A stretch of DNA of 64,000 bases from an uncultured delta proteobacterium (GCA_963798425.1 CAWCTP010000012.1:153470-217469); one strand, 5' to 3'; positions 33,910 through 49,513 are shown, numbered from the stretch's first letter. Notes: generated by a model from the letters alone, not told the origin. Translations and numbers: made by a program.

Positions 33910-34782
33910 ATGAGTAAACCGCGCTATTATCTACTGATGATGGTCTCTTTTCTCGCTCTCGTTTCCGGAGTGTGCGCACTTCTCTATGTTCCACTTCGCC
34001 AAGCATTTCTGGCCAATTGGGGATTTAATACGGTCATCCTTGGGGCATTGGTGATTGGAATTTTTCTTAACTTCCGCAGGGTGGTTGTTCTGAGGCCTGA
34101 AATAAGCTGGATCGAAATTTTTCGAACCGGCAGCTCGGGGTTGTCAGTGGCTGAAAGCCCGCATTTACTGAGGCCGCTGGCCAAGCATCTTGAGGGGTTG
34201 CATCGGGACCGTTTCAGCCTGTCTGCATTGTCACTTCAGACTGTTCTGGAGGGTATCCGAGGGCGGATGGATGAATCCCGGGAAATATCGAGGTATGTCA
34301 TCAGTCTGTTGGTTTTTCTTGGTCTGCTCGGTACTTTTTGGGGGCTGCTTGGGACCATCGGTGCGGTGAGCTCGGTGGTCGGTGGTCTCGAGGTCGGAAA
34401 CGGCGATTTCAACCAGATGTTTCAAACTATGAAAGTCGGTTTGCAGGAACCATTGAAGGGAATGGGAACGGCCTTCAGTTCTTCGCTCTTTGGTTTGGGA
34501 GGTTCACTTATCCTGGGATTTCTTGATATTCAGGCTAACCATGCTCAAAATCGTTTCTTTAACGAGCTTGAAGAGTGGCTTTCCGGTGTGACCCAGTTGG
34601 TCGAGAGAACGACGAAGGTTCAGCTTGAAGGGCAGGGCTCTATAGCACCCACGGGACCAGGCCAAGCACAGTTAGAAGCTTTGATTAGGGAGTTGCAGCG
34701 CACGAACAATTATCTGCAGGAAAAGTCCAGGGAAGAAATTGCAAAGTCAGCCGGTGATCCCGACGGGGATGATTGCCGCTAG
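33910..34782 (+). CDS. MotA/TolQ/ExbB-family proton-channel protein
   Basis: GGGAGGAACAACTC RBS. 290 aa with TM helices and the conserved C-terminal block LLGTFWGLLGTIGAV…MGTAFSSSLFGLGGSLILGF. Confidence 0.75.
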   Translation: MSKPRYYLLMMVSFLALVSGVCALLYVPLRQAFLANWGFNTVILGALVIGIFLNFRRVVVLRPEISWIEIFRTGSSGLSVAESPHLLRPLAKHLEGLHRDRFSLSALSLQTVLEGIRGRMDESREISRYVISLLVFLGLLGTFWGLLGTIGAVSSVVGGLEVGNGDFNQMFQTMKVGLQEPLKGMGTAFSSSLFGLGGSLILGFLDIQANHAQNRFFNELEEWLSGVTQLVERTTKVQLEGQGSIAPTGPGQAQLEALIRELQRTNNYLQEKSREEIAKSAGDPDGDDCR

Positions 34783-34790
34783 GAGAAAGT

Positions 34791-36068
34791 ATGTCCTCCA
34801 AATTTCGATCTTCTCAACAGTCACCAAGTATATGGCCGGGCTATGTTGATGCCTTGTCGGCTCTACTGATGGTGGTAATCTTTGTCCTGATGATATTTGC
34901 CTTTTCTCAATTCATTTTGAGTTATATCCTCTCCGGTCAAACCAGCGAATTGGCATCCCTTCATTCCCGTATCGCAGAAATAACCAAGTTACTGGGACTT
35001 GAAAAGAAGAGAAACAAGGAGATGGGGCAGCAGATAGCTTCTCTTTCAATCCAGGTTGAAGCACTGACCCTTGACCGAACGAAATTGCGCAGTAACGTCG
35101 ATGATCTGACCGCACAAAACGTCGCGGGAAAAAAAGAACAAGAACAGCAGTTACGAACCATTGCCAGCCTGCAGCAGGACATCGATGCCTTACAGGCTGT
35201 CCGTCGGGAGCTCGAAAAAAAGATCGCCAATGTGACGGCAGGTTTGGAGCAGGAACAACATCTGACTCTGTCACTGAGAGACCGAAGCAAAGCACTGGAG
35301 GCTCGCCTGGCTGACGAAGAGGAGAAGACACTGCTTGCTCAAAAGGATATTGACCAGCGCGATATCAGGATTCAGGCACTATCCGCATTGATCGGAGAGC
35401 AGCAGGAAAGTCTCGACAAAGAACAGCGCCTCACTGCCGACGCTAGAGCCGAGGTGGCATTGCTCAAGGAACAGTTGGTGCAGTTGCGGAGTCAACTGAG
35501 CGAAATTAACAAAGCTCTGAGTCTTTCTGAAGCGAAACGGACTGAACAAAAGGAAGAAATTCGTAATCTTGGTAATCGACTCAATATCGAGTTGGCGAGG
35601 AAAGTAAACGAACTGGAACGCTACCGTTCTGAATTTTTCGGTCGGTTGCGAAAGATTATCGGTGATAATCCGTTGATCCGTATAGAAGGCGATCGGTTTC
35701 TCCTGCAGGCTGAATTGCTTTTTGCCTCCGGGACAGCGGATTTGGGGGAGCAAGGGAAAAAACAGCTGCAACAGGTGGCGGCAGTACTGCTCAAGTTGAT
35801 ACCTTCCATCCCGAAGGACCTGCCATGGATTCTGCGGGTAGACGGCCATACTGACCGAGTGCCAATCCACTCGGCAAAGTTTGCTTCAAATTGGGAATTG
35901 TCCACCGCCAGAGCCGTCTCCGTTGTCCGGTATCTCGCTGAGCAGGGGATACCAGAGGCGCGGATGGCAGCTGCAGGATTCGGCAAATTCCATCCACTCG
36001 ACCCGGCTGATACCGAAGAGGCATATCGCAAAAACAGGCGCATTGAAATCAAGCTTACTTCCCGCTAA
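34791..36068 (+). CDS. MotB-like protein with ~250-aa coiled-coil linker and C-terminal OmpA-type peptidoglycan-binding domain
   Basis: The start overlaps the motA-like stop. MotB-like TM (WPGYVDALSALLMVVIFVLM). A long heptad-rich region. An OmpA-like C-terminus (GHTDRVPIHSAKFASNWELSTARAVSVVRYL). Confidence 0.75.
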   Translation: MSSKFRSSQQSPSIWPGYVDALSALLMVVIFVLMIFAFSQFILSYILSGQTSELASLHSRIAEITKLLGLEKKRNKEMGQQIASLSIQVEALTLDRTKLRSNVDDLTAQNVAGKKEQEQQLRTIASLQQDIDALQAVRRELEKKIANVTAGLEQEQHLTLSLRDRSKALEARLADEEEKTLLAQKDIDQRDIRIQALSALIGEQQESLDKEQRLTADARAEVALLKEQLVQLRSQLSEINKALSLSEAKRTEQKEEIRNLGNRLNIELARKVNELERYRSEFFGRLRKIIGDNPLIRIEGDRFLLQAELLFASGTADLGEQGKKQLQQVAAVLLKLIPSIPKDLPWILRVDGHTDRVPIHSAKFASNWELSTARAVSVVRYLAEQGIPEARMAAAGFGKFHPLDPADTEEAYRKNRRIEIKLTSR

Positions 36069-36485: not shown

Positions 36486-37967
36486 ATGAGTCGTTTATCA
36501 CCACGCGTTTCCGAGAAAGTTGAAGCATCGATCATATTCCCTGATAAAAAAGAACGATCCGTTCCTTTGACGAATATCGGTTTAGGTGGCGTTTTTCTGG
36601 ATGTTAGCAAAGAAATTTCGGCTAAATGGTTCGCACCTCAAACAATTCACACTCTCCGCATCAGTACAAAGAAATTTGGCGAGTTGATGCTTGGTACAAT
36701 GGTTGTTAGAAATGGAGGGAAGGGTGTCGGTCTTGTTTTTTCTGCAATCAGTCATGGAGATCTTTTAAAAATATGGGACTTCATTCGCGAGCTTATAGCC
36801 GATAAAACACGATGCCCCTATTGCAATCACGCCTTCAAGGTATTTCCTGAAAACTGTCCCGGTTGTCAACGTAATCTGAATTTCGAAAACAAGGGATATC
36901 TCACCTACTGGAAAAAGAAAGCACTCCTCAATCAGGTAACCGACAGCTTGAGCAACCTTACTGTCAGTGAGTTACAAAGAGTCTCGCAATTCATTGAAAA
37001 GGACTCCCGGGCTATGAAGCAATTGCCTGTGTCTAGTGAAACTGAGGAATTTGTGGGTACGTGTCCAGCAATTATGAAAGTTTTTTCTTTAATCCGAAAG
37101 ATATCTCTCACCGATCTCCCCGTCGTCATCTTTGGAGAAAGTGGGACGGGTAAGGAATTGACCGTCCGCGCCATACATGAAAGAAGTCCAAGAAACAAAG
37201 GGCCTTTTGTTGCTATAAATTGTGCGGCAATACCTGAGTCACTTCTTGAATCTGAACTTTTTGGACATACTAAAGGAGCTTTTACAGGGGCTCACGAGAT
37301 CAAGAAAGGAAAATTTGAATTGGCCGATAAGGGAACGCTGTTTCTTGATGAAATTGGAGAAATTCCGCTTAATTTGCAGCCAAAACTCCTTCGAGTCCTG
37401 GAGACCCAGGTAATTGAGCCTATCGGTTCGCAGGAAACCAGAAAGGTGAACGTTCGAATTCTCGTCGCAACAAATGTTGATCTTGAGGAGGCCGTAGCTG
37501 CGGGTCGTTTCAGGCTGGATCTGTATTACCGGCTTAAGGTTTTCACCATTAACCTTCCTCCCCTGAGGGAACGAGGAGAAGACAAAGGCATCCTGGCACA
37601 ATATTTCCTAAAGAAGATCAAGCAGGAAAGTAACTGGGCATGTAAAGGTTTCACCCCGGAGACTATGGACGTGATCAGTAAGCACTCCTGGCCAGGTAAC
37701 GTAAGAGAGATGATCAACCGTATTAGACGAGCGGTAGTGGTTCAGGACGAATGGATCAGGCCGGAAGATATGGAACTCGATGTCGAACCCAACACAAAAA
37801 ATCAACCAAGACTCAAAGAAGCCAAGGAAAACCTCAAAGAAAAAATGATACAGAACGCCTTAGTAGAGAATGGGTACAACATTTCTCAAACCGCCAAATC
37901 TCTGGGGATCAGCCGTCAGCATCTCTATCTGCTCAAAAAGAAATTTTCTATCGAAGTCTCCCGGTAA
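36486..37967 (+). CDS. sigma54-dependent transcriptional activator with N-terminal PilZ domain, Zn-ribbon and C-terminal Fis-type HTH
   Basis: GAGAGAGGA RBS. PilZ motifs RLSPR and NIGLGG. CPYCN…CPGC ribbon. AAA+ core with GESGTGKEL and GAFTGA. C-terminal HTH (ISQTAKSLGISRQHLY). Confidence 0.85.
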   Translation: MSRLSPRVSEKVEASIIFPDKKERSVPLTNIGLGGVFLDVSKEISAKWFAPQTIHTLRISTKKFGELMLGTMVVRNGGKGVGLVFSAISHGDLLKIWDFIRELIADKTRCPYCNHAFKVFPENCPGCQRNLNFENKGYLTYWKKKALLNQVTDSLSNLTVSELQRVSQFIEKDSRAMKQLPVSSETEEFVGTCPAIMKVFSLIRKISLTDLPVVIFGESGTGKELTVRAIHERSPRNKGPFVAINCAAIPESLLESELFGHTKGAFTGAHEIKKGKFELADKGTLFLDEIGEIPLNLQPKLLRVLETQVIEPIGSQETRKVNVRILVATNVDLEEAVAAGRFRLDLYYRLKVFTINLPPLRERGEDKGILAQYFLKKIKQESNWACKGFTPETMDVISKHSWPGNVREMINRIRRAVVVQDEWIRPEDMELDVEPNTKNQPRLKEAKENLKEKMIQNALVENGYNISQTAKSLGISRQHLYLLKKKFSIEVSR

Positions 37968-38230
37968 GGAACATACACGACACCTGTCATATAGGTGTTA
38001 CATTTCTGTTTGTTTTACTGTTTTCAATAGTTTAAACGACTATTTGGTCCCAGTTTGTAATATTTACCTTACAATTGAGGACGTATTTTTTTGTGTTGTT
38101 TTGCAATAACGACCAGTTAGGTTTGTGGCATGGTTTTTGTATATTTAGACACAAACGTACGGATATGAAACTTACGCTGAGCCAAGAGAACGTTCGAACG
38201 AAAACTATTCAAACAATAAGGAGGGTTCTT

Positions 38231-38620
38231 GTGAAAAAATATGTTTTGAATATTCTCATTATTGCCCTCCTTTTCATTTCAAACATAGCACTCGGTCAAG
38301 AAAGCAATCCGACGGTCCCTCAATTTCTTGAAACCAGCCAATTTTGCCAAGACTGTTTAACTGATGCCACGGTTGAGAAGTCCCATAAAACGATTGCTAC
38401 CAAGGAGCTTTCCTCTGAAGAACTTGACCGGATTATTGGAGAGGGACCAGCAAGTTTTATATTTCAAAATGACAACCAATCAAAAAAAAGGAGCCTGGCT
38501 GAGGTTATTCTCTGGGATGAAATCTCAAAACGAAGGAATGCCTCCATCGCGAGCAGTATCGCATTGAAGAGTGGAGGATCTTTAATGCATGGTGTCCAGG
38601 TAAACGGGGTTATCAAGTGA
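38231..38620 (+). CDS. small secreted hypothetical protein
   Basis: AAGGAGG followed by a GTG start. Signal peptide (KKYVLNILIIALLFISNIALG). The start codon is uncertain. Confidence 0.4.
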   Translation: MKKYVLNILIIALLFISNIALGQESNPTVPQFLETSQFCQDCLTDATVEKSHKTIATKELSSEELDRIIGEGPASFIFQNDNQSKKRSLAEVILWDEISKRRNASIASSIALKSGGSLMHGVQVNGVIK

Positions 38621-38747
38621 ACTATTCCATAGGAAGGATAAAGCCATAAGTGAAACAGCACAAAACAAAGAGCAAAGGGCGCCTTGAAGATCAAAAAACA
38701 AGGTTAGCAAAACGGAAAAAATTGACAAGAAAGGAGGTGGAAGAAAG

Positions 38748-39302
38748 ATGAGAAAATATTTGATCTTATTTCTAGCGTTCGCTTTCATGCAATCACCCCT
38801 TGCCTGGGGAAAGTCATCGAGTCTGACGGATGATGAGATGGAAGGGATATACGCCACAGGTGTGGATATAAGTGGAGGCACCCTGGTAGGCGTTCAAGAC
38901 ACAGTCATTGGTAGCGACGGTGCCATTGCGGTGGCCAATGCAACCGATAGCGCAATTGCCAATGACAAATCGTCTTCGGTGGCCAATACAAATGATAGCG
39001 CTGTACAGGTTGGTGTCAATAATAGGGAAAACGGCCAAAATCAAATGGATAATGCTGGATCCACAGTACAAGGAGGAGATTCGACGGTGGTCAATGTGGA
39101 CGGAGATAACAGAGATCAAAACAACCTGAATAAAACCGTTCAAGTCAATGATGAAGGTCAATCGAATAATCAAGGAATTATTGCCAACTTGTCACAAGGG
39201 ATTTTCGTACAGCCGGTTAATAGTGTGTCGCTGGCGAATGCGTCAATGAACAGTGACATCTCTCAACACAATACGGTTACAATCATGACAGTCAACTATT
39301 AA
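38748..39302 (+). CDS. secreted Asn/Asp-rich low-complexity protein, paralog family member 1
   Basis: AAAGGAGG RBS. Signal peptide, then the shared motif SLTDDEMEGIYATGV. Imperfect repeats (VANATDSAIAND / VANTNDSAVQVG). No Cys. Confidence 0.6.
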   Translation: MRKYLILFLAFAFMQSPLAWGKSSSLTDDEMEGIYATGVDISGGTLVGVQDTVIGSDGAIAVANATDSAIANDKSSSVANTNDSAVQVGVNNRENGQNQMDNAGSTVQGGDSTVVNVDGDNRDQNNLNKTVQVNDEGQSNNQGIIANLSQGIFVQPVNSVSLANASMNSDISQHNTVTIMTVNY

Positions 39303-39321
39303 ACTTTAGAAGGAGGACATT

Positions 39322-41058
39322 ATGAAAGGATTTAAGGTATACATGAGCTCACTCGCTTTGGTAGGGTTTCTGGTGTCTCCAGCATGGTCGACCCAGACCG
39401 CGCTCTCAGATTCGGACATGGATGGGGTTTATGCCCAGGGAATCACCATTTCGAACACCTACAACGATAACGATACTTTCAACAACACAACTACCCAGAA
39501 AAGTTCAAACTCCCTGAAGAGCAATCAAGCCAACCTGGCAAGCAATAATGCCCAAGCCGCGGCTTTAGGTAGCGGCGGGGATGCAAAGGGTGAAGCGGAG
39601 ACTGAAGGTAATAACAATGCCAACGGCGGCGATGGCGGTACCGGTGGTGCCGGTGGGCCTGGTTTTGGTCTTGGTCTTGGTCTTGGTGACAGTGGCGGCA
39701 ACACCGGCACCGGTAGCGGCACCGGCGGCAACGCTGGTGGCGGCGGTGGTGGCGGCACCGGTGGTCTCGCCGGTAATTTAGTCCCCGGTGGAAATGCTTT
39801 CGGCGGACCGGGCCTGGCTGGATCTGGAGCAGGGGTCCTGAATCCTAATGCTAACATTGATCCTGATATTCCAATTAGCGCCAATGTAGCGGCCACCCTG
39901 CAAACGTCTTTGGGTCTTAATGTCCAGGTTATTGCAGATATTAATGCAGCAGACAATGGTTCAGTTGCTATCGATGATATTGACGACTCAGCCGTCGCCA
40001 ATCTTAGTTCTATAGCCAATCGTAACAATAAAGGAAATTACCAAGCAGCAATTAATGGAGACAATGTCTTCAACAACTTGCAAAATCAGATCAGTCTGGA
40101 CGACAGCACCGTCTTTGGCAATGAATCACCGTCAATTAATACAGTTATTGGAAATGTGGCTGCGCCGAAAGCAGTGGCATTTGGTTCTGCGTACTCTGGG
40201 CCAGCCTTTGCCGGTGCGTCTAACAAAAGTGATCAGTTTAATGTTCCGGTTGCGGTCAGTGCAGCAACGAACGTTGGGCTGACGGATGCATATGGCAGGA
40301 CTTATGCCGATGCTGATGGTGGCGATGCACTGCAAGTTCCAATTGCTGCATCAGCCAACTTGGGTAAAGCCGATGCTGATGCTGACGGCGGTGCCTCTTT
40401 TGCAGCTGACGGAGCACTTGGCTTAACAGGTGCCGGCAGTGCTGCCTTTAATCCTAGCGGTAATGCTGCTGGACTCGCCGGCGCTACAGGCGGAGTCGGC
40501 GGCAATGGCGGGGACGGCAATGATGGTAATGCTCTGGCCGCCGCACTCGCTAGGGGTGGCAGTGACAACGATGCTCTAAGCGCTGCACTTGCTGCTCAGG
40601 GATTTGATCAGAAGGCTAAAGCCGGCGATGCCAATGGTGGTACAGCTGATGCTTATAACGACCAGAGCAATAAAAATTCTGCCGCTGCAATTGCGGATAC
40701 CAGTGGAAAAGCGCTGGCAGCTTCGGATGTAAAAGCAATCAACGAGCAGTACGCCAAGTCCGATGAAGCTAAGGCAGAAGGGGAAAATTATGCCAAGCAG
40801 GAAAATGATGTCAATGCAAAAAGCACCGCTACAAACCTGACCGCCGCTGATGCAAGTGGCACAGTAGCTGTCGTGACTGTTGATCAGAACAATCTGGTAA
40901 AATCCCTCCAGGTAAGTGGGAGCAATGATAACAAAGGCAACGTATTCCTGTCAATTCAAAGTAGTGTGCAACAGCAGGTGAACAACGTTTCAACTTCTGG
41001 CTATTCATCACCTATAACCCAAGGCAATGCAGTGGCCGTGAATACTCTGTTCAATTAG
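39322..41058 (+). CDS. secreted Gly/Ala/Asn/Asp-rich low-complexity protein, paralog family member 2
   Basis: GAAGGAGG RBS. Signal peptide plus ALSDSDMDGVYAQGI. A long GGTGGAGGPGFGLGLGLGDSGG… tract. No Cys. 578 aa. A Pro-rich antisense ORF is disregarded. Confidence 0.65.
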   Translation: MKGFKVYMSSLALVGFLVSPAWSTQTALSDSDMDGVYAQGITISNTYNDNDTFNNTTTQKSSNSLKSNQANLASNNAQAAALGSGGDAKGEAETEGNNNANGGDGGTGGAGGPGFGLGLGLGDSGGNTGTGSGTGGNAGGGGGGGTGGLAGNLVPGGNAFGGPGLAGSGAGVLNPNANIDPDIPISANVAATLQTSLGLNVQVIADINAADNGSVAIDDIDDSAVANLSSIANRNNKGNYQAAINGDNVFNNLQNQISLDDSTVFGNESPSINTVIGNVAAPKAVAFGSAYSGPAFAGASNKSDQFNVPVAVSAATNVGLTDAYGRTYADADGGDALQVPIAASANLGKADADADGGASFAADGALGLTGAGSAAFNPSGNAAGLAGATGGVGGNGGDGNDGNALAAALARGGSDNDALSAALAAQGFDQKAKAGDANGGTADAYNDQSNKNSAAAIADTSGKALAASDVKAINEQYAKSDEAKAEGENYAKQENDVNAKSTATNLTAADASGTVAVVTVDQNNLVKSLQVSGSNDNKGNVFLSIQSSVQQQVNNVSTSGYSSPITQGNAVAVNTLFN

Positions 41059-41174
41059 TATTTTATTTGACCAAGAGTTAAATGAAAAGGAGAGGGGGCA
41101 CAGAATCAGACCGTGCCCCCTTCTCCTGTTTCTCGTTTCAATTCAGGTTGAATGAAATAAAGGAGATAGAAGAA

Positions 41175-41831
41175 ATGCTCGCTCAAAAGCCAATAAAAGT
41201 ACTTTTAATAATGGTACTCATAGTAGGGTTATTCCCTGTTATCGGGTGGGCAGGGCCAAGTCTACTGACTGATGATGATATGGATGGAATATACGCCAAG
41301 GGGATCTGGGTAAATTTTGAAATAAACATAGCGCTACCCGGAGGAAACACACTGTCAGTTCCCTTTTCCAATATGTCTAATATGGCCTCGCTAGGTAATA
41401 TAGGGGGGACGGGAGGTGGTGTTGAAAATGTAAGTGTATCTACCCCGTCGTCAACTTCTAATCCAGCCACCGGTCAAAGCACTCCGTCGGTGGTTTCTGC
41501 TCCAGCCACTGGTCAAAGCACTCCGTCTGTGCTTTCTGCTCCAGCTACTAGCCAAAGCACGCCGTCGGCTACTTCCGGAAATACCACAAGTTCTCCTGCT
41601 AATACGGCATCACCTGTTTATGAATATAGCTCTCCGGGATCAGGCTTTATTGTCACTGGCAATGCTATGCAGGGAAACAGTGGACTGATGATAAATGCAC
41701 CCAATTCTGCAGTCAGCATGACCATCAGTGTGGTGGTCCTGAATAACAGTACGGTTGGAGGGAATATTATTCAATCCTCGAATAGCTACCCTACTAACCT
41801 GTTCTTGTCACTTAAAAGCTATATGCAGTAA
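41175..41831 (+). CDS. secreted Ser/Thr/Pro-repeat protein, paralog family member 3
   Basis: AAGGAGA RBS before MLAQKPIKVLL. Signal peptide plus SLLTDDDMDGIYAKGI. Three near-identical ATGQSTPSV(V/L)SAP repeats. Confidence 0.6.
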   Translation: MLAQKPIKVLLIMVLIVGLFPVIGWAGPSLLTDDDMDGIYAKGIWVNFEINIALPGGNTLSVPFSNMSNMASLGNIGGTGGGVENVSVSTPSSTSNPATGQSTPSVVSAPATGQSTPSVLSAPATSQSTPSATSGNTTSSPANTASPVYEYSSPGSGFIVTGNAMQGNSGLMINAPNSAVSMTISVVVLNNSTVGGNIIQSSNSYPTNLFLSLKSYMQ

Positions 41832-42082
41832 GTAAAGCCATAATCCCAATTTGGGATAGATTCCTTTGGATCTTCTTGATCTTTTTGAATAAAGGTACTC
41901 ACTCTATCTCACTCTATTTGGGTTGTGGCTCGTTGAACTATGAATAATTTTGTGTCCGACTCGTTGAGGTCCCTGTTTTTTTATTTTATGAGGGAGGATT
42001 TTCCAACAAGCTGCCAAAAGGTTTCTTTGATTGTTTTTCCTGTGATAAAGAAACTGATTAAAAGAGGGAGGAAAGGGTTGAT

Positions 42083-42793
42083 ATGAAAAAAAGACTTATG
42101 ATGTTTCTGTCCGTTTTGTTGATGCTTCTGCTCTCTGGATGTGCAAAAACAGTCGGACCCAGAATAAGCATAGGCGGAGCAGGATTGGGACTGGTAGTCG
42201 CAATGCCGGTAAAGAGCGACCAGGAGATAAAATGGCAAAATGTCAAAAGGCAAAGTCTGGATATTAGTTGTGGACCGGCAGCCTTGTCCACTTTGATCAA
42301 CTACTATCTTGAAGATCAAGTATCGGAAATGGACATCATAAGCGGTATCCTGACGTCCAGCGACATCACCAAGATAAAAAAAATTCAAAAGAGACAGGCT
42401 TTCTCTTTGTTAGATTTGAAGAAATTTGCAAAATCCAGGGGGTATCAGGCTGCAGGATACAGAGTGGGTATTCAAGAACTGCTGGACTTTGCCAAGCCGG
42501 TTATAGTTCCTATCGAAACCATGGGGTATCGGCACTTTGTTGTGTTCAAGGGGATTAAGGGTGACCGGGTATACCTGGCTGACCCTGCTTTTGGTAACAG
42601 AACGATGCGCTATCCAAATTTTCTGTATGTCTGGAAGCAGCGGGTGGCTCTGGTAGTCAGTGCTCATGATGGAAAAGAAATTAAGAAGCATGATTTGAGT
42701 TTAGATGGTCAGCATGGGGTCTATGTGGAGGGTGGCATGCAGAGGATATTGAACCAGAGCTCTATAAATTTTATACCCTTGGGAGACTTCTAA
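42083..42793 (+). CDS. peptidase C39-like domain lipoprotein
   Basis: Lipobox LLSGC. C39 hallmarks: Cys in SLDISCGPAALSTLINYY, His in YRHFVVFKGIKGDRVYLADPAFG, then WKQRVALVV. Confidence 0.7.
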   Translation: MKKRLMMFLSVLLMLLLSGCAKTVGPRISIGGAGLGLVVAMPVKSDQEIKWQNVKRQSLDISCGPAALSTLINYYLEDQVSEMDIISGILTSSDITKIKKIQKRQAFSLLDLKKFAKSRGYQAAGYRVGIQELLDFAKPVIVPIETMGYRHFVVFKGIKGDRVYLADPAFGNRTMRYPNFLYVWKQRVALVVSAHDGKEIKKHDLSLDGQHGVYVEGGMQRILNQSSINFIPLGDF

Positions 42794-42891
42794 CAGAGTT
42801 CTCAGACAGAGTTATCAGTATGCTTGATTCGAAAAAATTAAGAAAAGGGTGTCTAGCCCTTTTCTTAATTTTTTCTTGTTGATTCAATCTG

Positions 42892-43929
42892 CTAGAATAA
42901 GTCAAAACGGAAAGGTACTGCCAGCTGGACGGTTACGTCGGGCGCATCCTCTGATAGTCCAATGGCGATGGAGAAATCGAGGTACCCACCTTTATCAAGA
43001 GCTAACACAGTCCCGAACTTGAGTGACGGAATGTTTTGATGGCTTCCGGAAATGGTTCCGGTTTTAATTCCGGCATTGTTATCGGGAAACTGGATATCCT
43101 CAACTGAACTTCTGAAGATAACTTGATGAGAATACTGCATATTTAAAGAAAAATCCGGACTCAATGCATAGGCAAATCCCAGCCCCCAATCTATGCTGTC
43201 GCCCGGATCATACTCTACATCTCCTACATTAACATCCGGTCCCAAATCTATCGTTCTTGAAATATTGTATGTATAGCCGATATTAGAAAAAACGACCACA
43301 GGGTCCATGGTTTTTATGGCGCTGAGAGTTCCATGGATTCCCCAGAAACCAGACCCCGTGGGGATCTCGTCATCATTCAGATCGAAGGGGTCCTTGCCTG
43401 TTCTGGTCTTTACCCTTACTGAGCCTACCAAGGCCGGTCTGCTGGCTTTTTCATTTAAAAATTGATAACTGAGGCCAGCCTCTATATCTCCAAAAGCTGT
43501 ATCAGTTGTTTTTGTTTCTTCACCGCTTTGGTACGAGATAATGTCGTTGGAATACCGCCATGGCACCATTACGTCCATTTGCAATTGGTTCCAAAGGCCA
43601 TATCGAAAAGTAAGGCTGGGTTCTACTATATTTCTTTCGACATCGGCCACATCAAAGGAACCTATAATAACCCCCGGAAGAACAGCCAAGCCATAAACGT
43701 ACAGGCGGTTGGTTGTTTGTAGTGAATAGCGGAGTTGAGGAGAGATCTCAAGCTGCCCCTGTTGGAGCAGGACGCCCCCTCTTTCGGCAACAGCTGGTGC
43801 AATTGAAAGTCTGATATCTTCAGGATTTTCAGCACCTTGTTGGGCGGACAAGGCTGTTTGGCCATTTCCAATGGTGCACAGGCCAAGAGTCATTACCATA
43901 ATAACACTCTTACAAATCGGCTTTTTCAT
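42892..43929 (-). CDS. outer-membrane beta-barrel protein
   Basis: AAGGGAGGA RBS before MKKPICK. Signal peptide. Alternating beta-strand pattern. Ends …VPFRFDLF (aromatic C-terminus). Convergent with the C39 gene. Confidence 0.6.
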   Translation of the reverse strand: MKKPICKSVIMVMTLGLCTIGNGQTALSAQQGAENPEDIRLSIAPAVAERGGVLLQQGQLEISPQLRYSLQTTNRLYVYGLAVLPGVIIGSFDVADVERNIVEPSLTFRYGLWNQLQMDVMVPWRYSNDIISYQSGEETKTTDTAFGDIEAGLSYQFLNEKASRPALVGSVRVKTRTGKDPFDLNDDEIPTGSGFWGIHGTLSAIKTMDPVVVFSNIGYTYNISRTIDLGPDVNVGDVEYDPGDSIDWGLGFAYALSPDFSLNMQYSHQVIFRSSVEDIQFPDNNAGIKTGTISGSHQNIPSLKFGTVLALDKGGYLDFSIAIGLSEDAPDVTVQLAVPFRFDLF

Positions 43930-44198
43930 CGTTCCTCCCTTGCTGCTCATATGAGCGATAACTATTAACAAATAGGTGTAAGGTGATGGGTGATATGTAG
44001 TCGTTTCTGTGCTTGTCTTGAGGTTTACCAGATATTTCTTTTCTCTTCCTGAGTTTTATTAAACCTATCGTATTTCTATATCTTTTTCTATGATTTTCGT
44101 AACTGTTCAGAAAAATAATATCGAAAAATCAATTCTGTCTGAGCAGAATCCAACTGCCTTTCAAATATACAATCAATCTATGCTCGATTACAGACATC

Positions 44199-44347: not shown

Positions 44348-47300
44348 ATGACCAGTGAAAGTCAGGATTTCCTTCGACAGTGCCTTCTTCTTGATATCGA
44401 GGTTAACGAAAAGAACGTTATTTATTCGATAGGTGGTGCTTTTCAGGGAGATTCTTTTCTGATCAAACCTGGGAAACAGATATCTTTTCAGCAGCTTCAG
44501 GAATTAGATAAATTCGGTCGTTCAGCGCAGTTTATTCTAGGTCATAATATCCTCAGTTATGATATTCCGCGCCTCAAGCAGATTGATCCTTCTCTGCAAC
44601 TCTTGAAAAAGCCGGCAATTGATACTCTGATTCTCTCTCCGCTTGCTTTCCCGGAAAATCCTTATCACCGATTGGTGAAAGATTATAAGCTCGTCCGGGA
44701 CAGCGTTAACGACCCGGTGCAGGATGCTCTTTTAGCCGGTAAAGTCTTTTCCGAGCAGTGGGATGCTTTTACCGGACAGATCGGCGCTGGCTCGGACGCA
44801 CCGATACTTTTCAGAAGTTTTCTGCACAATGATGGAAATCTGGGCGGAACCGCTGCAGCATTTGAGGCAATGAGTGTGCCTCTATTGAGAGGAGACGATC
44901 TTTACGAATCCTTTTGTTGGTTGGCACAAAAACATGGCTGCAGGACCAGTGCTGAAAATATTGTCGAGCAACTTATTAATGGAACGGTGAGTCATCCTCC
45001 GCTTGCCTATGTTACTGCCTGGTTGACAGTTGCTGGTGGAAATTCGGTTTTGCCGCCCTGGGTAAAACATCACTTTCCTGAAGTGCCTTTTTTACTCAAT
45101 CAACTTCGGCAGAATGGCTGCGGGGAGAGTAATTGCAGCTATTGCAGGGAGCACCATGATCCTCACCATTATCTGCAAAATTATTATGGTTTCCAGGATT
45201 TTCGGTTAGAGCCGGCTACAGAAGAAGGAAAAAGTTTACAGGCGGAAATTGTAGCAGCTGCCGCAAAAAATCTGTCACTTTTTGCCACGCTTCCGACTGG
45301 CGGCGGCAAATCGCTCTGCTATCTGCTTCCAGCCCTGATGCGCTACCAGCAACGCAATATGTTGACTATCGTCATTTCGCCCCTCCAGGCCTTGATGAAA
45401 GATCAGGTCGATAATTTCCTGAAACAGACGGGAACAAAGCTTGCGGTAGCTTTATACGGCATGCTGACCATGCCGGAGCGCGGAGAGATTATAGAGGGAG
45501 TTCGTCTTGGCGATGTCGGGATTCTGTTTGTCTCCCCCGAACAGCTTAGAAATCAATCGTTTATCAATACTATCAGTCAACGGGAAATTGGGGCCTGGGT
45601 TTTTGATGAGGCGCATTGTCTCTCTAAATGGGGCCATGACTTTCGGCCCGATTATCTCTACTCCATCCGGTTCATTCGTGAGTTTGCTCAAAAAGAAAAA
45701 ACCGGTATACCGCCTGTCCAGTGCTTTACCGCAACCGCTAAAAAAGATGTAAAAGCCGAAATAATTGACATCGTCCAGAGCGAACTCGGTTTGCGGCTGC
45801 ATCAATTTGAAGGCGGACACGAACGGACCAATCTGCATTATGAAGTGTGGCCTGTAGAAAAGCATGAAAAGAACCAGACAATTCTCGAATTACTCAGGGC
45901 GAGGTATCAGGGCAAAGGTAGCGTGGTTATTTATTGCGCGACGAGAAAAAATACCGAAATGTTATCGGAATTTCTCAATATGGCGGGATATACCGCTGAA
46001 GCCTTTCATGCAGGTCTAGACCCATCGTTGAAAAAACGTATCCAGGAAAATTTCATCGAGGGGGCAACCCCAGTTATTTGCGCCACCAACGCTTTTGGCA
46101 TGGGGATCGATAAGGACGACGTCCGTCTGGTAATTCATGCAGATATTCCCGGATCGCTGGAAAATTATCTCCAGGAGGCCGGTCGAGCAGGACGTGATCG
46201 CAGTGCCGCTGAGTGTATCCTCATATTTGCCGAGCAGGATATTGAAGGGCAATTTAGACTCAGCAGCAAATCCAGATTGACGCAGCGGGAAATTGCTCAG
46301 TTTCTTCGAGGGTTGCGATATGCTGCAAAAGGTGGAGATTCTGTGGTGCTGACAGCAGGGGAATTGCTGCGCCTCGACGTTGTGGACATCGATCCGGAGG
46401 AGCATCCAAATGCAGATACCCAGGTTCGCACCGCAGTCTCCTGGCTAGAACGTGCCGGTTTTCTTGAACGTAATGAAAATCACACCAGGGTCTTTCAGGG
46501 TAAGCCATTGGTCCGAAGCCTGGCGGAAGCGACCGAAAAAATGGGCAAACTTAATCTCTCTCAGAGGCAACAGGCCAGATGGCTGGCAATTTTAGCAGTT
46601 TTGATGGAGCGGCGACAGAATCAGTCCTTTAGTGCAGATGAACTGGCGGGGCAGTCAGCATTTACAACCACCCCTGAAGATCCGCCAAATGAAACAGAAA
46701 CCCTGCGTGTTATTCGTACTTTAAACGATATGGCCGAACAGGGCTTACTCTCAAAGGAAACGATCCTTTCAGCCTATGTCCGTTATAAAGTCTTGAAAAA
46801 TACAGAAAAACAACTGCAGCAGATAGTTATGCTGGAGCACGATTTCCTCCAGGTTTTACAGGAGACCGCACCGGAAATGGAGGTTGAGGCATTACTGGAG
46901 ATCGATCTTCGGCAAGTGAACCAGCTGTTACTGGAGAAGGGCCATAAAGAAAGCACCCCGCATATCCTGAAACTAATTCTGCATGGTTTATCCCGTGATG
47001 GCAAAGGGCTTGCGGGACAGCGTGGGAGTCTTTCGCTTAAAGCCAAAGGAAATAATAGATTTTCCCTGTGCCTGCATCGTGATTGGCAATCGCTGGTGCA
47101 AACGGTGCGTACTCGTCAATTGGCTGCTTCTGCCGCATTGAAGGTAATGCTTGGCACGATTGAGCCTTCTGCCAAGCCAAATGCAAGTCTGTTAGTCGAG
47201 TTCACCCTGGAAAAAATAATTGCCGGGTTAAAAACAGATTTACTTCTATTGCCAAAACTCCGGGACCCGCTTGCTGCGGCGGAACGTGCGCTGACTTTTA

Positions 47301-49513
47301 TGCATGAGCTGGGAATTATCGAATTACAGCAGGGACTGGCTGTTTTTCGTCAGGCCATGACCATCAAGATAAACCCGGAAGCAAAGCGAAGACGCTATTC
47401 CGGGACTGATTTCTCTCCTCTTAAAACCCACTATAACGAACGGAATTTCCAGATTCATGTGATGAACGAGTACGCGAGGCGGGCGCTGGAGAAGCTGAGT
47501 GTGGCAATGAATCTGGTCTCTTCGTATTTCAACGATGATAAAGACGACTTTATAAAACGGTTTTTTCCGGGGAAGAAGAAACATTTGGAAAGGGCGACCA
47601 GTGAGCAGTCGTATCTCAGGATAGTCGATGATTTGAAAAATGAAAGTCAACAAAGGATCGTTGCTGCGGAAACCGACCGCAATATGCTGGTTCTGGCCGG
47701 TCCTGGTTCGGGGAAGACAAGGGTTGTTGCTCATCGCGTGGCGTATCTGCTCCGGGTGAAACGGATAAAACCCGAGGCGATTCTGGTGCTCTGCTTTAAC
47801 CGCAGTGCGGTGATGAGTCTTCGGAGAAGAATTCGGGACCTGGTGGGGGACGACATGTTTGGGGTGACAACACTCACCTTTCATGGTTTGGCCTTGCGGC
47901 TGACCGGCAGGTCTTTGGTCACTGGAGAACAGAAAACTGGTCTCGATGAAATCGATTTTTCCATGGTTATCCAGGATGCTATCAGGTTGTTAAAAGGTGA
48001 GGAGGATGTCTTGGGTTTTGGTGATGTCCCTCCCAGATATACCCTGGTCGGCAAAATCAGCCATATCCTGGTCGATGAATATCAGGATATTGATGCCGAA
48101 CAGTATGAACTTGTCGCACTCCTGGCAGGTAAGACGCTGGAAGAAAAGGATCAGAAAATGACAATCCTTGCGGTAGGAGACGACGACCAGAACATCTACC
48201 GCTTCAGGGGGGCCAATGTCGGATTTATCCGAAAGTTCCATGAGGATTATAAGGCGGAAATTCACTACCTCATAGAAAACTACCGATCGACTGCACATAT
48301 AGTCTCTGCTGCAAACACTCTTATCAGCATGAATTCCGACCGGATGAAAATCGGTCATTCACTTCAGGTGAACCAGGCAAGGATTTCGTTGCCGCCTGGA
48401 GGAAACTGGCATTTGAATGATCCCCTAACAAAAGGTAGAGTACAGCGAATTGAAGTTGAGAACCAGCAGGATCAGGCCTGCGTGCTCTTACAAGAATTGC
48501 GACGTTTGCAGCGATTGCAGAATGGTTTTGCATTTGGCGAGTGTGCTGTTCTTGCCCGTGAGTGGAAAGGTCTTGATCTGGTTCGGGCTGTTTTGGAACA
48601 TGAAAAAATCCCGGTCAGTCTGAACTGGGGGCGTACGAATGCTTTTCCACGCATGTCGAAGATTAGGGAAAATTGCGTGCTTCTCGATCAATTACGGGAG
48701 ACAAGGTCGGAAATGAGAACAGCAAGTTCTCTCCTCACCTTTGTGCCGGTTGATATAAATCAAGATACTCTTTGGCACACTAATCTCAGGAGGTTGATAG
48801 CAGAATGGAGAGAGGAAACAAAGGATGTTCCACAGCCGGTGTCCCTTATTGAGGACTATTTTTACGAAGCACTCTCCGACCAGAGTCGGTCTAAAAATCT
48901 CTCTAACGGGATTTTTCTCTCCACTGTTCATTCTATAAAAGGTCTTGAATTCGACCATGTTTTTCTTCTCGGAGATGGTTGGCAGAAAAAACAGGGGATG
49001 GAAATGGAAGAGGAACGAAGGTTGTATTACGTCGGCATGTCGCGGGCGCGTGAGACGTTGCATCTCTTCAATCTTTCAGATAGTCCTAATCCACACGCAG
49101 AATCACTCACCGGCGACTTTCTGATCGCTCGAAAAGTGAAACCCGTAGAAAAATTCCAACCTTTAAATACACACTATGCCCTATTAGGTATGGGGGATCT
49201 TTTTCTCGATTACGCCGGACGAAAAAATGCGAGTCATCAGATTCGGGGAGCTTTGCAAAAATTACGGGCCGGAGACCGACTGCTGATAGAAGTGCGCAAT
49301 CGACAGTTAGAGCTGGTCAATGAACAAGGAATTTCAGTTGCTCGATTATCGAAAACTGCGCAGGCAGAGTGGGAAAATCGGGTGAGAGCGATCAGGGAAA
49401 TTCGGGTTATAGCAATGGTTCAGCGTTGTAAAAAGGATATCATTGATCAAACTTTCGGCAATCGATGTTCAGAAGAAAATTGGGAGGTTCCTATTGTCGA
49501 ATTTTGTTTTTAG
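44348..49513 (+). CDS. DEDDh-exonuclease / RecQ-like SF2 helicase / UvrD-like SF1 helicase triple-fusion protein
   Basis: 1721 aa. N-terminal DnaQ-like exonuclease (LLLDIEVNE…ILGHNILSYDIPRL). RecQ motifs (TGGGKSLCYLLPA, SPLQALMKDQV, DEAHCLSKWGHDFRPDY, ATNAFGMGIDKDDVR, QEAGRAGRD). C-terminal UvrD motifs (AGPGSGKTRV, ILVDEYQDID, VGDDDQNIYRFRGA, NYRST, VHSIKGLEFDHVFLL, VGMSRARE). Confidence 0.85.
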   Translation: MTSESQDFLRQCLLLDIEVNEKNVIYSIGGAFQGDSFLIKPGKQISFQQLQELDKFGRSAQFILGHNILSYDIPRLKQIDPSLQLLKKPAIDTLILSPLAFPENPYHRLVKDYKLVRDSVNDPVQDALLAGKVFSEQWDAFTGQIGAGSDAPILFRSFLHNDGNLGGTAAAFEAMSVPLLRGDDLYESFCWLAQKHGCRTSAENIVEQLINGTVSHPPLAYVTAWLTVAGGNSVLPPWVKHHFPEVPFLLNQLRQNGCGESNCSYCREHHDPHHYLQNYYGFQDFRLEPATEEGKSLQAEIVAAAAKNLSLFATLPTGGGKSLCYLLPALMRYQQRNMLTIVISPLQALMKDQVDNFLKQTGTKLAVALYGMLTMPERGEIIEGVRLGDVGILFVSPEQLRNQSFINTISQREIGAWVFDEAHCLSKWGHDFRPDYLYSIRFIREFAQKEKTGIPPVQCFTATAKKDVKAEIIDIVQSELGLRLHQFEGGHERTNLHYEVWPVEKHEKNQTILELLRARYQGKGSVVIYCATRKNTEMLSEFLNMAGYTAEAFHAGLDPSLKKRIQENFIEGATPVICATNAFGMGIDKDDVRLVIHADIPGSLENYLQEAGRAGRDRSAAECILIFAEQDIEGQFRLSSKSRLTQREIAQFLRGLRYAAKGGDSVVLTAGELLRLDVVDIDPEEHPNADTQVRTAVSWLERAGFLERNENHTRVFQGKPLVRSLAEATEKMGKLNLSQRQQARWLAILAVLMERRQNQSFSADELAGQSAFTTTPEDPPNETETLRVIRTLNDMAEQGLLSKETILSAYVRYKVLKNTEKQLQQIVMLEHDFLQVLQETAPEMEVEALLEIDLRQVNQLLLEKGHKESTPHILKLILHGLSRDGKGLAGQRGSLSLKAKGNNRFSLCLHRDWQSLVQTVRTRQLAASAALKVMLGTIEPSAKPNASLLVEFTLEKIIAGLKTDLLLLPKLRDPLAAAERALTFMHELGIIELQQGLAVFRQAMTIKINPEAKRRRYSGTDFSPLKTHYNERNFQIHVMNEYARRALEKLSVAMNLVSSYFNDDKDDFIKRFFPGKKKHLERATSEQSYLRIVDDLKNESQQRIVAAETDRNMLVLAGPGSGKTRVVAHRVAYLLRVKRIKPEAILVLCFNRSAVMSLRRRIRDLVGDDMFGVTTLTFHGLALRLTGRSLVTGEQKTGLDEIDFSMVIQDAIRLLKGEEDVLGFGDVPPRYTLVGKISHILVDEYQDIDAEQYELVALLAGKTLEEKDQKMTILAVGDDDQNIYRFRGANVGFIRKFHEDYKAEIHYLIENYRSTAHIVSAANTLISMNSDRMKIGHSLQVNQARISLPPGGNWHLNDPLTKGRVQRIEVENQQDQACVLLQELRRLQRLQNGFAFGECAVLAREWKGLDLVRAVLEHEKIPVSLNWGRTNAFPRMSKIRENCVLLDQLRETRSEMRTASSLLTFVPVDINQDTLWHTNLRRLIAEWREETKDVPQPVSLIEDYFYEALSDQSRSKNLSNGIFLSTVHSIKGLEFDHVFLLGDGWQKKQGMEMEEERRLYYVGMSRARETLHLFNLSDSPNPHAESLTGDFLIARKVKPVEKFQPLNTHYALLGMGDLFLDYAGRKNASHQIRGALQKLRAGDRLLIEVRNRQLELVNEQGISVARLSKTAQAEWENRVRAIREIRVIAMVQRCKKDIIDQTFGNRCSEENWEVPIVEFCF

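Follow-up and report, generated by a model that had tools for sequence, protein, structure and literature searches.

The Fap functional-amyloid system of Pseudomonas and Aeromonas (fapABCDEF), which forms fibrils, combines Sec-exported components and a Cys-poor, N/Q-rich cargo with a stand-alone periplasmic C39 peptidase, FapD, and a 12-stranded outer-membrane β-barrel with a PTG motif, FapF. In Pseudomonas sp. UK4, the catalytic residue of FapD (Cys38) is needed for secretion, which is abolished in the C38A mutant (PMC5557850). A 2018 review regarded the substrate of FapD as yet to be determined and mentioned co-localised fapD/fapF homologues in five additional phyla without naming a cargo, and a 2025 review still names FapE and FapF as what the peptidase is "thought to" process. 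The Fil system of Acinetobacter (filABCDEF, a 'type III' pilus locus) contains the related proteins FilB and FilC, and in strain Tol 5 its major subunit FilA (Pfam DUF6160) forms part of a pilus on the cell surface (PMC11784438). Here, we analysed a locus of six genes, A to F, in a 64,000-nt stretch of DNA from an uncultured delta proteobacterium (GCA_963798425.1, CAWCTP010000012.1:153470-217469), referred to below as the window. The locus places an unannotated cargo set (the A-type protein A, proteins B and C with a shared module, and the D-type protein D) on a recognisable Fap/Fil machine consisting of peptidase E and barrel F.

An original prediction, read from the nucleotide sequence, had proposed a fibre locus with a parts list resembling that of Fap, and all the features it described are present. 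The resemblance is stronger than was thought at that point, since the relation of E to FapD/FilB and of F to FapF/FilC is one of true homology. The accompanying view that the sequences are not orthologous to Fap or curli components therefore fails for the machinery (4e-45 with FapF, 1e-33 with FapD) but stands for the cargo, for which all searches were negative except for short alignments across signal peptide and motif. In open-access papers and bioRxiv, we found no description of the leader-like motif presented below, of the D-type family, of the B/C module or of the A-type family, and on a generalisation of FapD/FapF systems, DUF6160 or the substrate of FapD, the literature yielded only the 2018 remark on co-localised homologues.

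Machinery related to FapD/FilB and FapF/FilC

Protein E matches the Pfam family Peptidase_C39 (3.8e-17) and lacks an ATP-binding cassette (ABC) domain. Against NCBIfam, it reached 5.4e-38 with FilB (131 bits; cut-off 475) and 1.1e-33 with FapD (116 bits; cut-off 330), while a phmmer comparison with Aeromonas FapD gave 1.9e-31. Its lipobox reads LLSGC, and 25 aligned homologues with 33-78% identity to E show no variation at Gln57, Cys63, His151 and Asp167, in line with the C39 lipoprotein and catalytic residues first proposed. Judged from its sequence, E is thus a periplasmic, lipid-anchored C39 peptidase of the FapD/FilB family with an intact set of active-site residues. Because the scores of both E and F lie far under the NCBIfam equivalog cut-offs, neither protein is assigned as FapD or FapF proper, and E is classed as a family member below equivalog level. 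In a neighbour-joining tree, the C39 peptidases fell into groups that follow cargo type: the D-type loci, a DUF6160 clade, FapD, and a clade accompanied by small 'VTAG' proteins. E and its counterpart in the related locus L001 occupy a long branch, and true FapD forms the clade farthest from E. The closest C39 match to E in a scan of GTDB representatives (one genome per species) has 43% identity.

Barrel F aligned with the crystallised FapF of Pseudomonas sp. UK4 (PDB 5O65/5O67) over the whole barrel, including the PTG motif, with a phmmer value of 2.5e-32 (residues 70-356 in the numbering of a 359-aa open reading frame, ORF). The NCBIfam FapF model was matched at 4.1e-45 (154 bits; equivalog cut-off 700), only at model positions 117-420, and the FilC model at 2.1e-22 (80 bits; cut-off 630), with 1.6e-22 for phmmer with FilC itself. 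These comparisons identify F as a predicted FapF/FilC-family homologue and not as an equivalog. The convergent barrel with a final Phe had been correctly recognised (the C-terminus reads FRFDLF). As its start, an ATG at 43929 with a GGGAGG ribosome-binding site is preferred here over the TTG codon at 43971. The sequence RGG stands just ahead of the barrel.

The parallels with Fap extend to the organisation of the cargo. In both systems, a small first-gene protein carries a leader-like motif in mid-chain (FapA and A), and one Fap component, FapE, has a related motif directly after its signal peptide. The window differs from Fap in that all four cargo proteins bear the motif, which FapB and FapC lack, and in that F is convergently transcribed and has no coiled coil, and E is a lipoprotein. 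With Fil, the locus shares homologues of both machine parts and a motif of the same class directly after the signal peptide of the major subunit FilA, whereas phmmer searches with FilA, FilD (FadL-like), FilE and FilF found nothing among the window ORFs. The similarity to curli (Csg, type VIII secretion) is one of concept, as unfolded N/Q-rich repeat proteins are exported by Sec, cross the outer membrane by way of a pore of their own and assemble extracellularly. The curli pore belongs to another family, no protease takes part, and a Pfam scan of A to F at E ≤ 1 returned neither Curlin_rpt nor any Csg family (CsgG/E/F).

The cargo proteins and their leader-like motif

In agreement with the Sec-type N-termini initially noted on four consecutive genes, A to D each begin with a hydrophobic segment followed by small residues at −3/−1, as read from the sequence (AWG/K, AWS/T, WAG/P and ALG/Q, the slash marking the cut). 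Cys is absent from B, C and D, and, as described before, N, G, A, D, S and T abound in them, with 13-22% N+Q, 18-34% G+A and 15-29% S+T. Internal imperfect repeats are likewise present and are modest: a 39-nt unit repeated 2.7 times in D (41462-41568), Gly-codon microrepeats in C (39637-39765) and an 8-residue xVANxxDS periodicity in the body of B. The repeat number of the B body varies between close relatives, since the B homologue P0006 contains an additional 16-residue copy of the SVANATDSAVANDNSS unit (alignment A4, columns ~98-113).

Apart from a weak Pfam match of A to the type-A lantibiotic family (E 0.075), A to D had no Pfam or NCBIfam match at E ≤ 1, though the models for FapA, FapE, FilA and DUF6160 recognise true members. 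Hidden Markov models (HMMs) built from metagenomic FapA, FapB and FapE, as well as phmmer searches with FapB and FapC, found nothing in the window, and a sequence search of the cargo against the PDB was negative. Neither the Fap repeat (GNxGxNxxAGxxNQQxN) nor a curlin repeat occurs in the cargo. Profile comparison of the B/C module with FapB by hhalign gave a probability of 0.3%, and A has no profile similarity to FapA past the signal peptide.

The cargo nevertheless falls into families of its own, none of which is annotated. D-type proteins share a C-terminal module, GNAxQGxxGLxINAxNSAVSxxIxVVVLNNS (alignments A2 and A3), and number 32 members in a set of 5.8 billion proteins and at least 150 representatives in a set of 1.84 billion, all without annotation. 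In L003 (Armatimonadota), L005, L007, L047 (Aquificaceae) and L056, the gene immediately upstream of the one for the C39 peptidase encodes such a protein, and the order D-type, C39, FapF-like is kept in Armatimonadota, Aquificaceae, a delta-proteobacterial metagenome-assembled genome (MAG) and other MAGs. Only 16 homologues of B were found, each at least 73% identical and none annotated. B and C have in common a module in their last ~60 residues (60-75 residues long in the family), with the consensus Q-NNN-SVQLN-AQ-GAS-L-N-A-SA-N-GQN-A...Q-N-Q-A-N, which no Pfam family matches. Each of the two proteins has one copy, whereas cargo proteins of relatives have 14 (L007, 1110 aa), 12 (L005, 1151 aa) or at least 4 (L047). 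Profiles of C and the D family aligned with 94% probability (hhalign) across signal peptide and motif. A-type proteins are small products of the first gene in the window, L001, L007 and L005, and ILWD is invariant among them (alignment A8); in A the ILWD(E/D) motif follows the mid-protein leader-like motif.

A feature common to the cargo is a 13-residue motif, L-(S/T)-D-x-(E/D)-M-(E/D)-G-(I/V)-Y-A-x-G in B, C and D, that begins 4-5 residues past the predicted signal-peptidase site. It had been noted in these three proteins, all of which have it, but A also carries a copy, LSSEELDRIIGEG, which brings the count to four. A relaxed regular expression of the motif matched 4 of the 302 window ORFs of at least 50 aa, namely A to D only, compared with 0.2% of shuffled ORFs from Fap loci, and a motif HMM likewise had A to D as its sole matches in the 64-kb window.

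The motif has the register of the helix by which C39 peptidases recognise double-glycine leaders. In the co-crystal of LahT150 with a leader, the contacts are made by Leu-12, Glu-8, Leu-7, Val-4 and a small P2 residue; the leader forms a two-turn helix that packs −4, −7 and −12 into a hydrophobic groove, and its final 13 residues suffice for recognition (PMC6363468). Aligned to this register, the window motifs read LTDDEMEGIYAT/G, LSDSDMDGVYAQ/G, LTDDDMDGIYAK/G and LSSEELDRIIGE/G, with Leu-12, Glu-8, Leu/Met-7, Val/Ile-4 and a small residue at −2. They have Ala at P2, except for Gly in A, and T, Q, K or E at P1. AlphaFold2 places a short helix on the motif and then a strand, at low confidence. 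These positions run counter to the original prediction, which had considered the C39 domain unlikely to act as a classical bacteriocin leader peptidase in view of Sec signals in place of GG leaders. Compared with the peptidase-containing ABC transporters (PCATs) that process class II bacteriocins, ComC and microcins, the locus thus shares the C39 fold, the Gln/Cys/His/Asp site and the leader register. It differs in that the peptidase is periplasmic and lipid-anchored instead of a cytoplasmic domain of an ABC exporter, in that the "leader" stands behind a Sec signal peptide, which PCAT substrates lack, in that Gly-Gly, Gly-Ala or Gly-Ser is not found at P2-P1, and in that the cargo consists of large proteins with an outer-membrane barrel as their exit.

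The same motif class recurs beside relatives of E in other phyla. The scan covered one genome per species, and the best 80 C39 loci were kept; they span Armatimonadota, Omnitrophota, Desulfobacterota, Acidobacteriota, Aquificota and Alpha-, Beta- and Gammaproteobacteria. In 63 of these 80 loci, a FapF-like ORF lies no more than 5 kb away from the C39 gene, and 50 have at least one motif ORF (motif HMM match at E ≤ 0.01) within 8 kb, many of those without one having their C39 gene at a contig edge. There are 102 motif ORFs in total, 90 of them on the strand of the C39 gene, with a median motif start at residue 32. Across 99 non-redundant instances from the C39 loci, the motif shows L/I/M/V at −12 (100%), S/T at −11 (83%), D at −10 (59%), Q/E/D at −8 (94%), L/M at −7 (98%), D/S at −6 (88%), V/I at −4 (95%), T at −3 (67%), A/G at P2 (99%; A 81%, G 18%), G, Q or A at P1 (47%, 28% and 14%) and G/A at P1' (92%), with −9 and −5 variable. 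The motif also lies inside Pfam DUF6160 and NCBIfam FilA proteins. In Acinetobacter FilA, it directly follows the signal peptide as MDDAALSAATGQDG (SMDDAALSAATGQDG), and the DUF6160 proteins beside Desulfobacterota and Smithella C39 genes carry MTPVSDxxLSxVTGQAGV after the signal peptide.

For comparison with Fap itself, a true Aeromonas fap operon (L083) and 80 metagenomic fap loci (L085-L164) served as the reference set. In true fap loci, the relaxed regular expression matched 29 of 45 FapA proteins, 3 of 1137 other ORFs and 0.2% of shuffles, and none of FapB, FapC, FapD or FapE, so that enrichment is clear in FapA only. The match in FapA coincides with its most conserved block, ELSDGDFAxVSSG, in mid-protein (for example L151:393-842). 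FapE (for example L151:2947-3696) has a conserved variant directly after its signal peptide, FKPIELKDxELAxLRGRY, which retains Leu-12, Glu-8, Leu/Met-7, Leu-4 and Gly-2. In UK4, the N-terminal ~70 residues of FapE are absent from the mature protein, with no peptide before residue 72 (PMC5557850). The links to FapA and FapE are based on a short motif, profile comparisons having shown no homology, and may be regarded as strong leads but not as proof. A tblastn search of plasmids with Aeromonas FapE returned only itself.

Two further observations came from the same survey. Locus L014 (JAKPZB010000043.1), binned as a Methanobacteriota archaeon, has a FapD-like C39 gene and DUF6160-like motif proteins; this contig is probably mis-binned, because the system is of a diderm-bacterial type. 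In addition, some Pseudomonas genomes (loci L050, L042, L059 and L078) contain a second C39 and FapF-like pair, which does not form a fap operon and is followed by a FadL-like ORF as in Acinetobacter fil, with no motif ORF at the threshold used.

A possible export route and its alternatives

Taken together, the locus is probably a self-contained, sigma-54-regulated module for export across the outer membrane, built from the same machinery superfamily as Fap and Fil. In such a module, a sigma-54 activator, possibly responsive to cyclic di-GMP through its PilZ-like domain, would switch on A-B-C-D-E, and A to D, to judge from their N-termini, would pass the inner membrane via Sec. The signal-peptidase cut would expose the motif at the new N-terminus of B, C and D and leave it internal in A. 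In the periplasm, lipid-anchored E would then bind the motif helix and would most likely cut after position −1 (IYAT/G in B, VYAQ/G in C and IYAK/G in D). Recognition would license the unfolded, Cys-free cargo for passage through barrel F, as suggested by its homology to FapF. Outside the cell, the N/Q-rich modules and low-complexity bodies may assemble into a surface fibre or matrix, with C and B as the bulk, D as a conserved minor or adaptor subunit and A as a periplasmic accessory protein positioned like FapA. A surface fibre is suggested by analogy, because FilA is a pilus subunit, Fap forms fibrils and the cargo of relatives consists of tandem modules. Provided that this scheme is correct, we lean towards cleavage of the motif rather than mere docking.

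It also seems reasonable to formulate a wider hypothesis, which we put forward tentatively and would not quite expect to hold: the motif may serve periplasmic C39 peptidases of the FapD/FilB type in general as the signal by which they recognise their substrates, in effect as a double-glycine leader that follows a Sec signal peptide. A two-step pathway of outer-membrane secretion shared by many phyla would then lead from Sec over a C39-read helix to a FapF-type barrel. Its cargo would include Fap (via FapA and FapE), Fil (FilA/DUF6160) and hundreds of unannotated families, the A-type, B/C-type and D-type proteins described here among them, and the locus in the window would represent a minimal member in which every exported protein bears the signal. 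The locus and its relatives provide a concrete candidate signal for FapD, the essential Fap protease, and this signal is present on nearly every neighbouring exported protein, on FilA, on FapA and, as a variant, on FapE. The main value of the analysis thus lies in a testable hypothesis for substrate recognition across the FapD/FapF superfamily. If true, it would explain how FapF-type pores choose their substrates, make the cargo predictable across whole genomes, most of it unannotated proteins of fibres, adhesins or matrices in uncultured phyla, and open a way to block Fap or Fil biogenesis or to engineer secretion. For the window alone, the result is more modest, namely a new cargo set on a known machine.

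Several results weigh against the proposed export route. Classical C39 enzymes require Gly, Ala or Ser at P1, and the variable P1 of the window cargo (T, Q and K in B, C and D) is the main departure from the classical pattern. The motif HMM derived from the cargo had no significant match in true Fap loci (best E 1-3; FapE 2.6), its non-significant FapE matches falling on the correct site, and hhalign of the D-type family with FapE gave probabilities of 8.5-24%, across signal peptide and motif only. In UK4, a tryptic FapA peptide spanning the motif was sequenced intact 14 times. The N-terminal periplasmic trimeric coiled coil of FapF, reported as required for secretion in Pseudomonas, was not found in F, which has ~35 residues between signal peptide and barrel and no visible heptads. 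The AlphaFold2 models of D and B have a mean predicted local distance difference test (pLDDT) score of 45.8 (31-sequence alignment) and 33.9 (15-sequence alignment), respectively, with no confident fold, and these low-confidence models do not demonstrate a fibre or β-solenoid fold. The candidate sigma-54 promoter upstream of A has a non-consensus −12 element, GT instead of GC.

The intact FapA peptide suggests that the motif is not always cleaved, which keeps alive an explanation with the same machinery in which the motif is only a docking or targeting signal. E would then be a receptor or chaperone, or would cut elsewhere, for example in the plug region of F (AERGG/VLL). C39-like domains act in this way, as leader receptors or chaperones, in some type I secretion systems. 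The lack of a conserved Gly at P1 would fit such a role, as would the proposal that FapF itself is the target of FapD at a GG junction (Rouse et al.), given the RGG ahead of the barrel in F. We nevertheless consider docking alone unlikely, since invariant Gln, Cys, His and Asp in 25 diverse homologues speak for genuine proteolytic activity, secretion is lost in the C38A mutant of FapD, and A/G at P2 and G/A at P1' are as conserved as the helix, which is expected of a scissile site and not of a pure docking helix. The end product is a separate matter. A true Fap-type functional amyloid, with B and C equivalent to FapB and FapC and an extracellular cross-β fibril, would be consistent with Cys-free cargo rich in N, Q, G and A, with N/Q-rich modules that stand in tandem in relatives, with a pore and protease homologous to those of Fap, and with the absence of a globular AlphaFold2 fold, compatible with disordered monomers. 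This seems doubtful, as the cargo contains no Fap or curlin repeat and both the FapB HMM and hhalign were negative. Moreover, the module is 60-75 residues long, the 1100-aa proteins with 14 modules look more like repetitive adhesins than like subunits of an amyloid, and descriptions of the related Fil system speak of a pilus.

Two other readings assign the parts to different functions altogether. Cargo proteins A to D could be precursors of secreted toxins or bacteriocin-like proteins with an antimicrobial role, whose leaders are removed by E; their leader register is the same as that of class II bacteriocins and microcins, and A has the weak lantibiotic match mentioned above. It is very improbable, considering that the locus contains no immunity gene, ABC exporter or modification enzyme, that the cargo is large (184-578 aa), low in complexity and acidic, with 12-14 tandem modules in relatives, and that the homologous Fap and Fil systems are structural. 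Scarcely credible is a role of F as a COG4313/MetA-type uptake channel for hydrophobic compounds that stands beside a C39 gene and low-complexity genes by coincidence. F does match Pfam Phenol_MetA_deg (5.6e-7), and FapF is structurally nearest to the COG4313 importer Pput2725, but F scores much better against FapF (4e-45) than against this uptake family, the pairing of C39 and FapF-like genes recurs in 63 of 80 loci across phyla, F is kept in L001 and L002 despite different flanks, and there are no adjacent catabolic genes. The export module remains the preferred reading of the locus.

Arrangement of the locus and its surroundings

ORF and start analysis of the 64-kb window resolved the locus into two convergent units, with a regulator gene upstream (Table 1).

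Table 1. Coordinates of the genes, expression signals and related cargo proteins; positions without a locus name refer to the window.
Feature	Position	Strand	Description
Regulator gene	36486-37967	+	sigma-54-dependent transcriptional activator; probable start MSRLS at 36486
Candidate sigma-54 (-24/-12) promoter	38126-38141	+	TGGCAT-GGTTT-TTGTA, ~90 nt upstream of A
Gene A	38231-38620	+	129 aa; GTG start, AGGAGGG ribosome-binding site; first gene of cargo operon; motif LSSEELDRIIGEG mid-protein at residues 60-72
Gene B	38748-39302	+	184-aa cargo protein; signal peptide; motif LTDDEMEGIYATG at residues 26-38; N/D/S/A-rich body; one N/Q-rich module at 121-184, final Tyr
Gene C	39322-41058	+	578-aa cargo protein; signal peptide; motif LSDSDMDGVYAQG at residues 28-40; long Gly/Ala/Asn-rich low-complexity body; one N/Q-rich module at 518-578
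Hairpin between C and D	41088-41139	+	GC-rich hairpin, then U-rich tract; RNA folding
Gene D	41175-41831	+	218-aa cargo protein, D-type family; signal peptide; motif LTDDDMDGIYAKG at residues 31-43; β-strand; Ser/Thr/Pro-rich linker with 13-aa repeats; C-terminal module
Gene E	42083-42793	+	236-aa lipoprotein C39 cysteine peptidase, FapD/FilB family
Palindrome between convergent E and F	42831-42875	.	nearly perfect long palindrome, 20-bp stem; from sequence
Gene F	42892-43929	-	345-aa FapF/FilC-family outer-membrane β-barrel
Giant cargo protein	L007:5786-9118		signal peptide and leader-like motif first, aromatic last residue
Giant cargo protein	L005:5884-9339		signal peptide and leader-like motif first, aromatic last residue

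The regulator consists of a PilZ-like N-terminus, a Cys4 zinc ribbon, an AAA+ sigma-54 interaction domain and a Fis-type helix-turn-helix, with Pfam matches to Sigma54_activat (2.6e-69), AAA_lid_14 and HTH_8. It had been described as a PilZ-sigma54 regulator; the sigma-54 part is secure, while the N-terminus matched Pfam PilZ below the threshold (E 4.6e-4, 20.9 bits, cut-off 22.5). An orthologue of 491 aa stands at the same position in L001 and L002. Conserved gene order in relatives had been set as a test, and the order regulator-A-B-C-D-E-F is indeed kept in these two loci (78% identity), both flanks of which differ from those of the window. Since the order persists while the flanks change, the seven genes form one unit.

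The block upstream of A is a candidate sigma-54 promoter of the operon, read from the sequence. A consensus search with one mismatch allowed found nothing upstream of A, as this candidate needs two mismatches. The block GTGG(C/T)A(T/C)GG(T/C)TTTTGTATA is kept in L001 and L002, whereas the intergenic DNA around it is poorly conserved. An inverted repeat, ACACCTGTCATATAGGTGT, lies just past the regulator gene (37979-37999), and a block TGTAATATTTA(C/T)CT at ~38055-38075 is common to the window and L001/L002; each of the two might serve to bind the activator or to terminate transcription.

The hairpin between C and D has a folding energy of −46.2 kcal/mol (z = −6.8), which was equalled or beaten by 0 of 200 shuffles, and its stem core also occurs in L001, where it is weaker. 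It is possibly a partial (leaky) terminator or attenuator that sets the ratio of B/C to D/E. The palindrome between E and F is probably a bidirectional terminator. No tRNA and no Rfam match were found in the 64-kb window.

Immediately ahead of the regulator (33910-36068), an ORF that contains several hydrophobic segments precedes a second protein, which has a single such segment at its N-terminus and a long, charged and repetitive region resembling a coiled coil. From the translations, our guess is that they might be a MotA/ExbB-like and MotB/OmpA-like pair; the upstream region of L001 does not contain it. Directly downstream of the locus, an ORF of 1721 aa (44348-49513) looks like a fusion with helicase motifs (DEAH and UvrD-like). 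This ORF is not kept in L001, where an ABC transporter stands beside the locus in its place.

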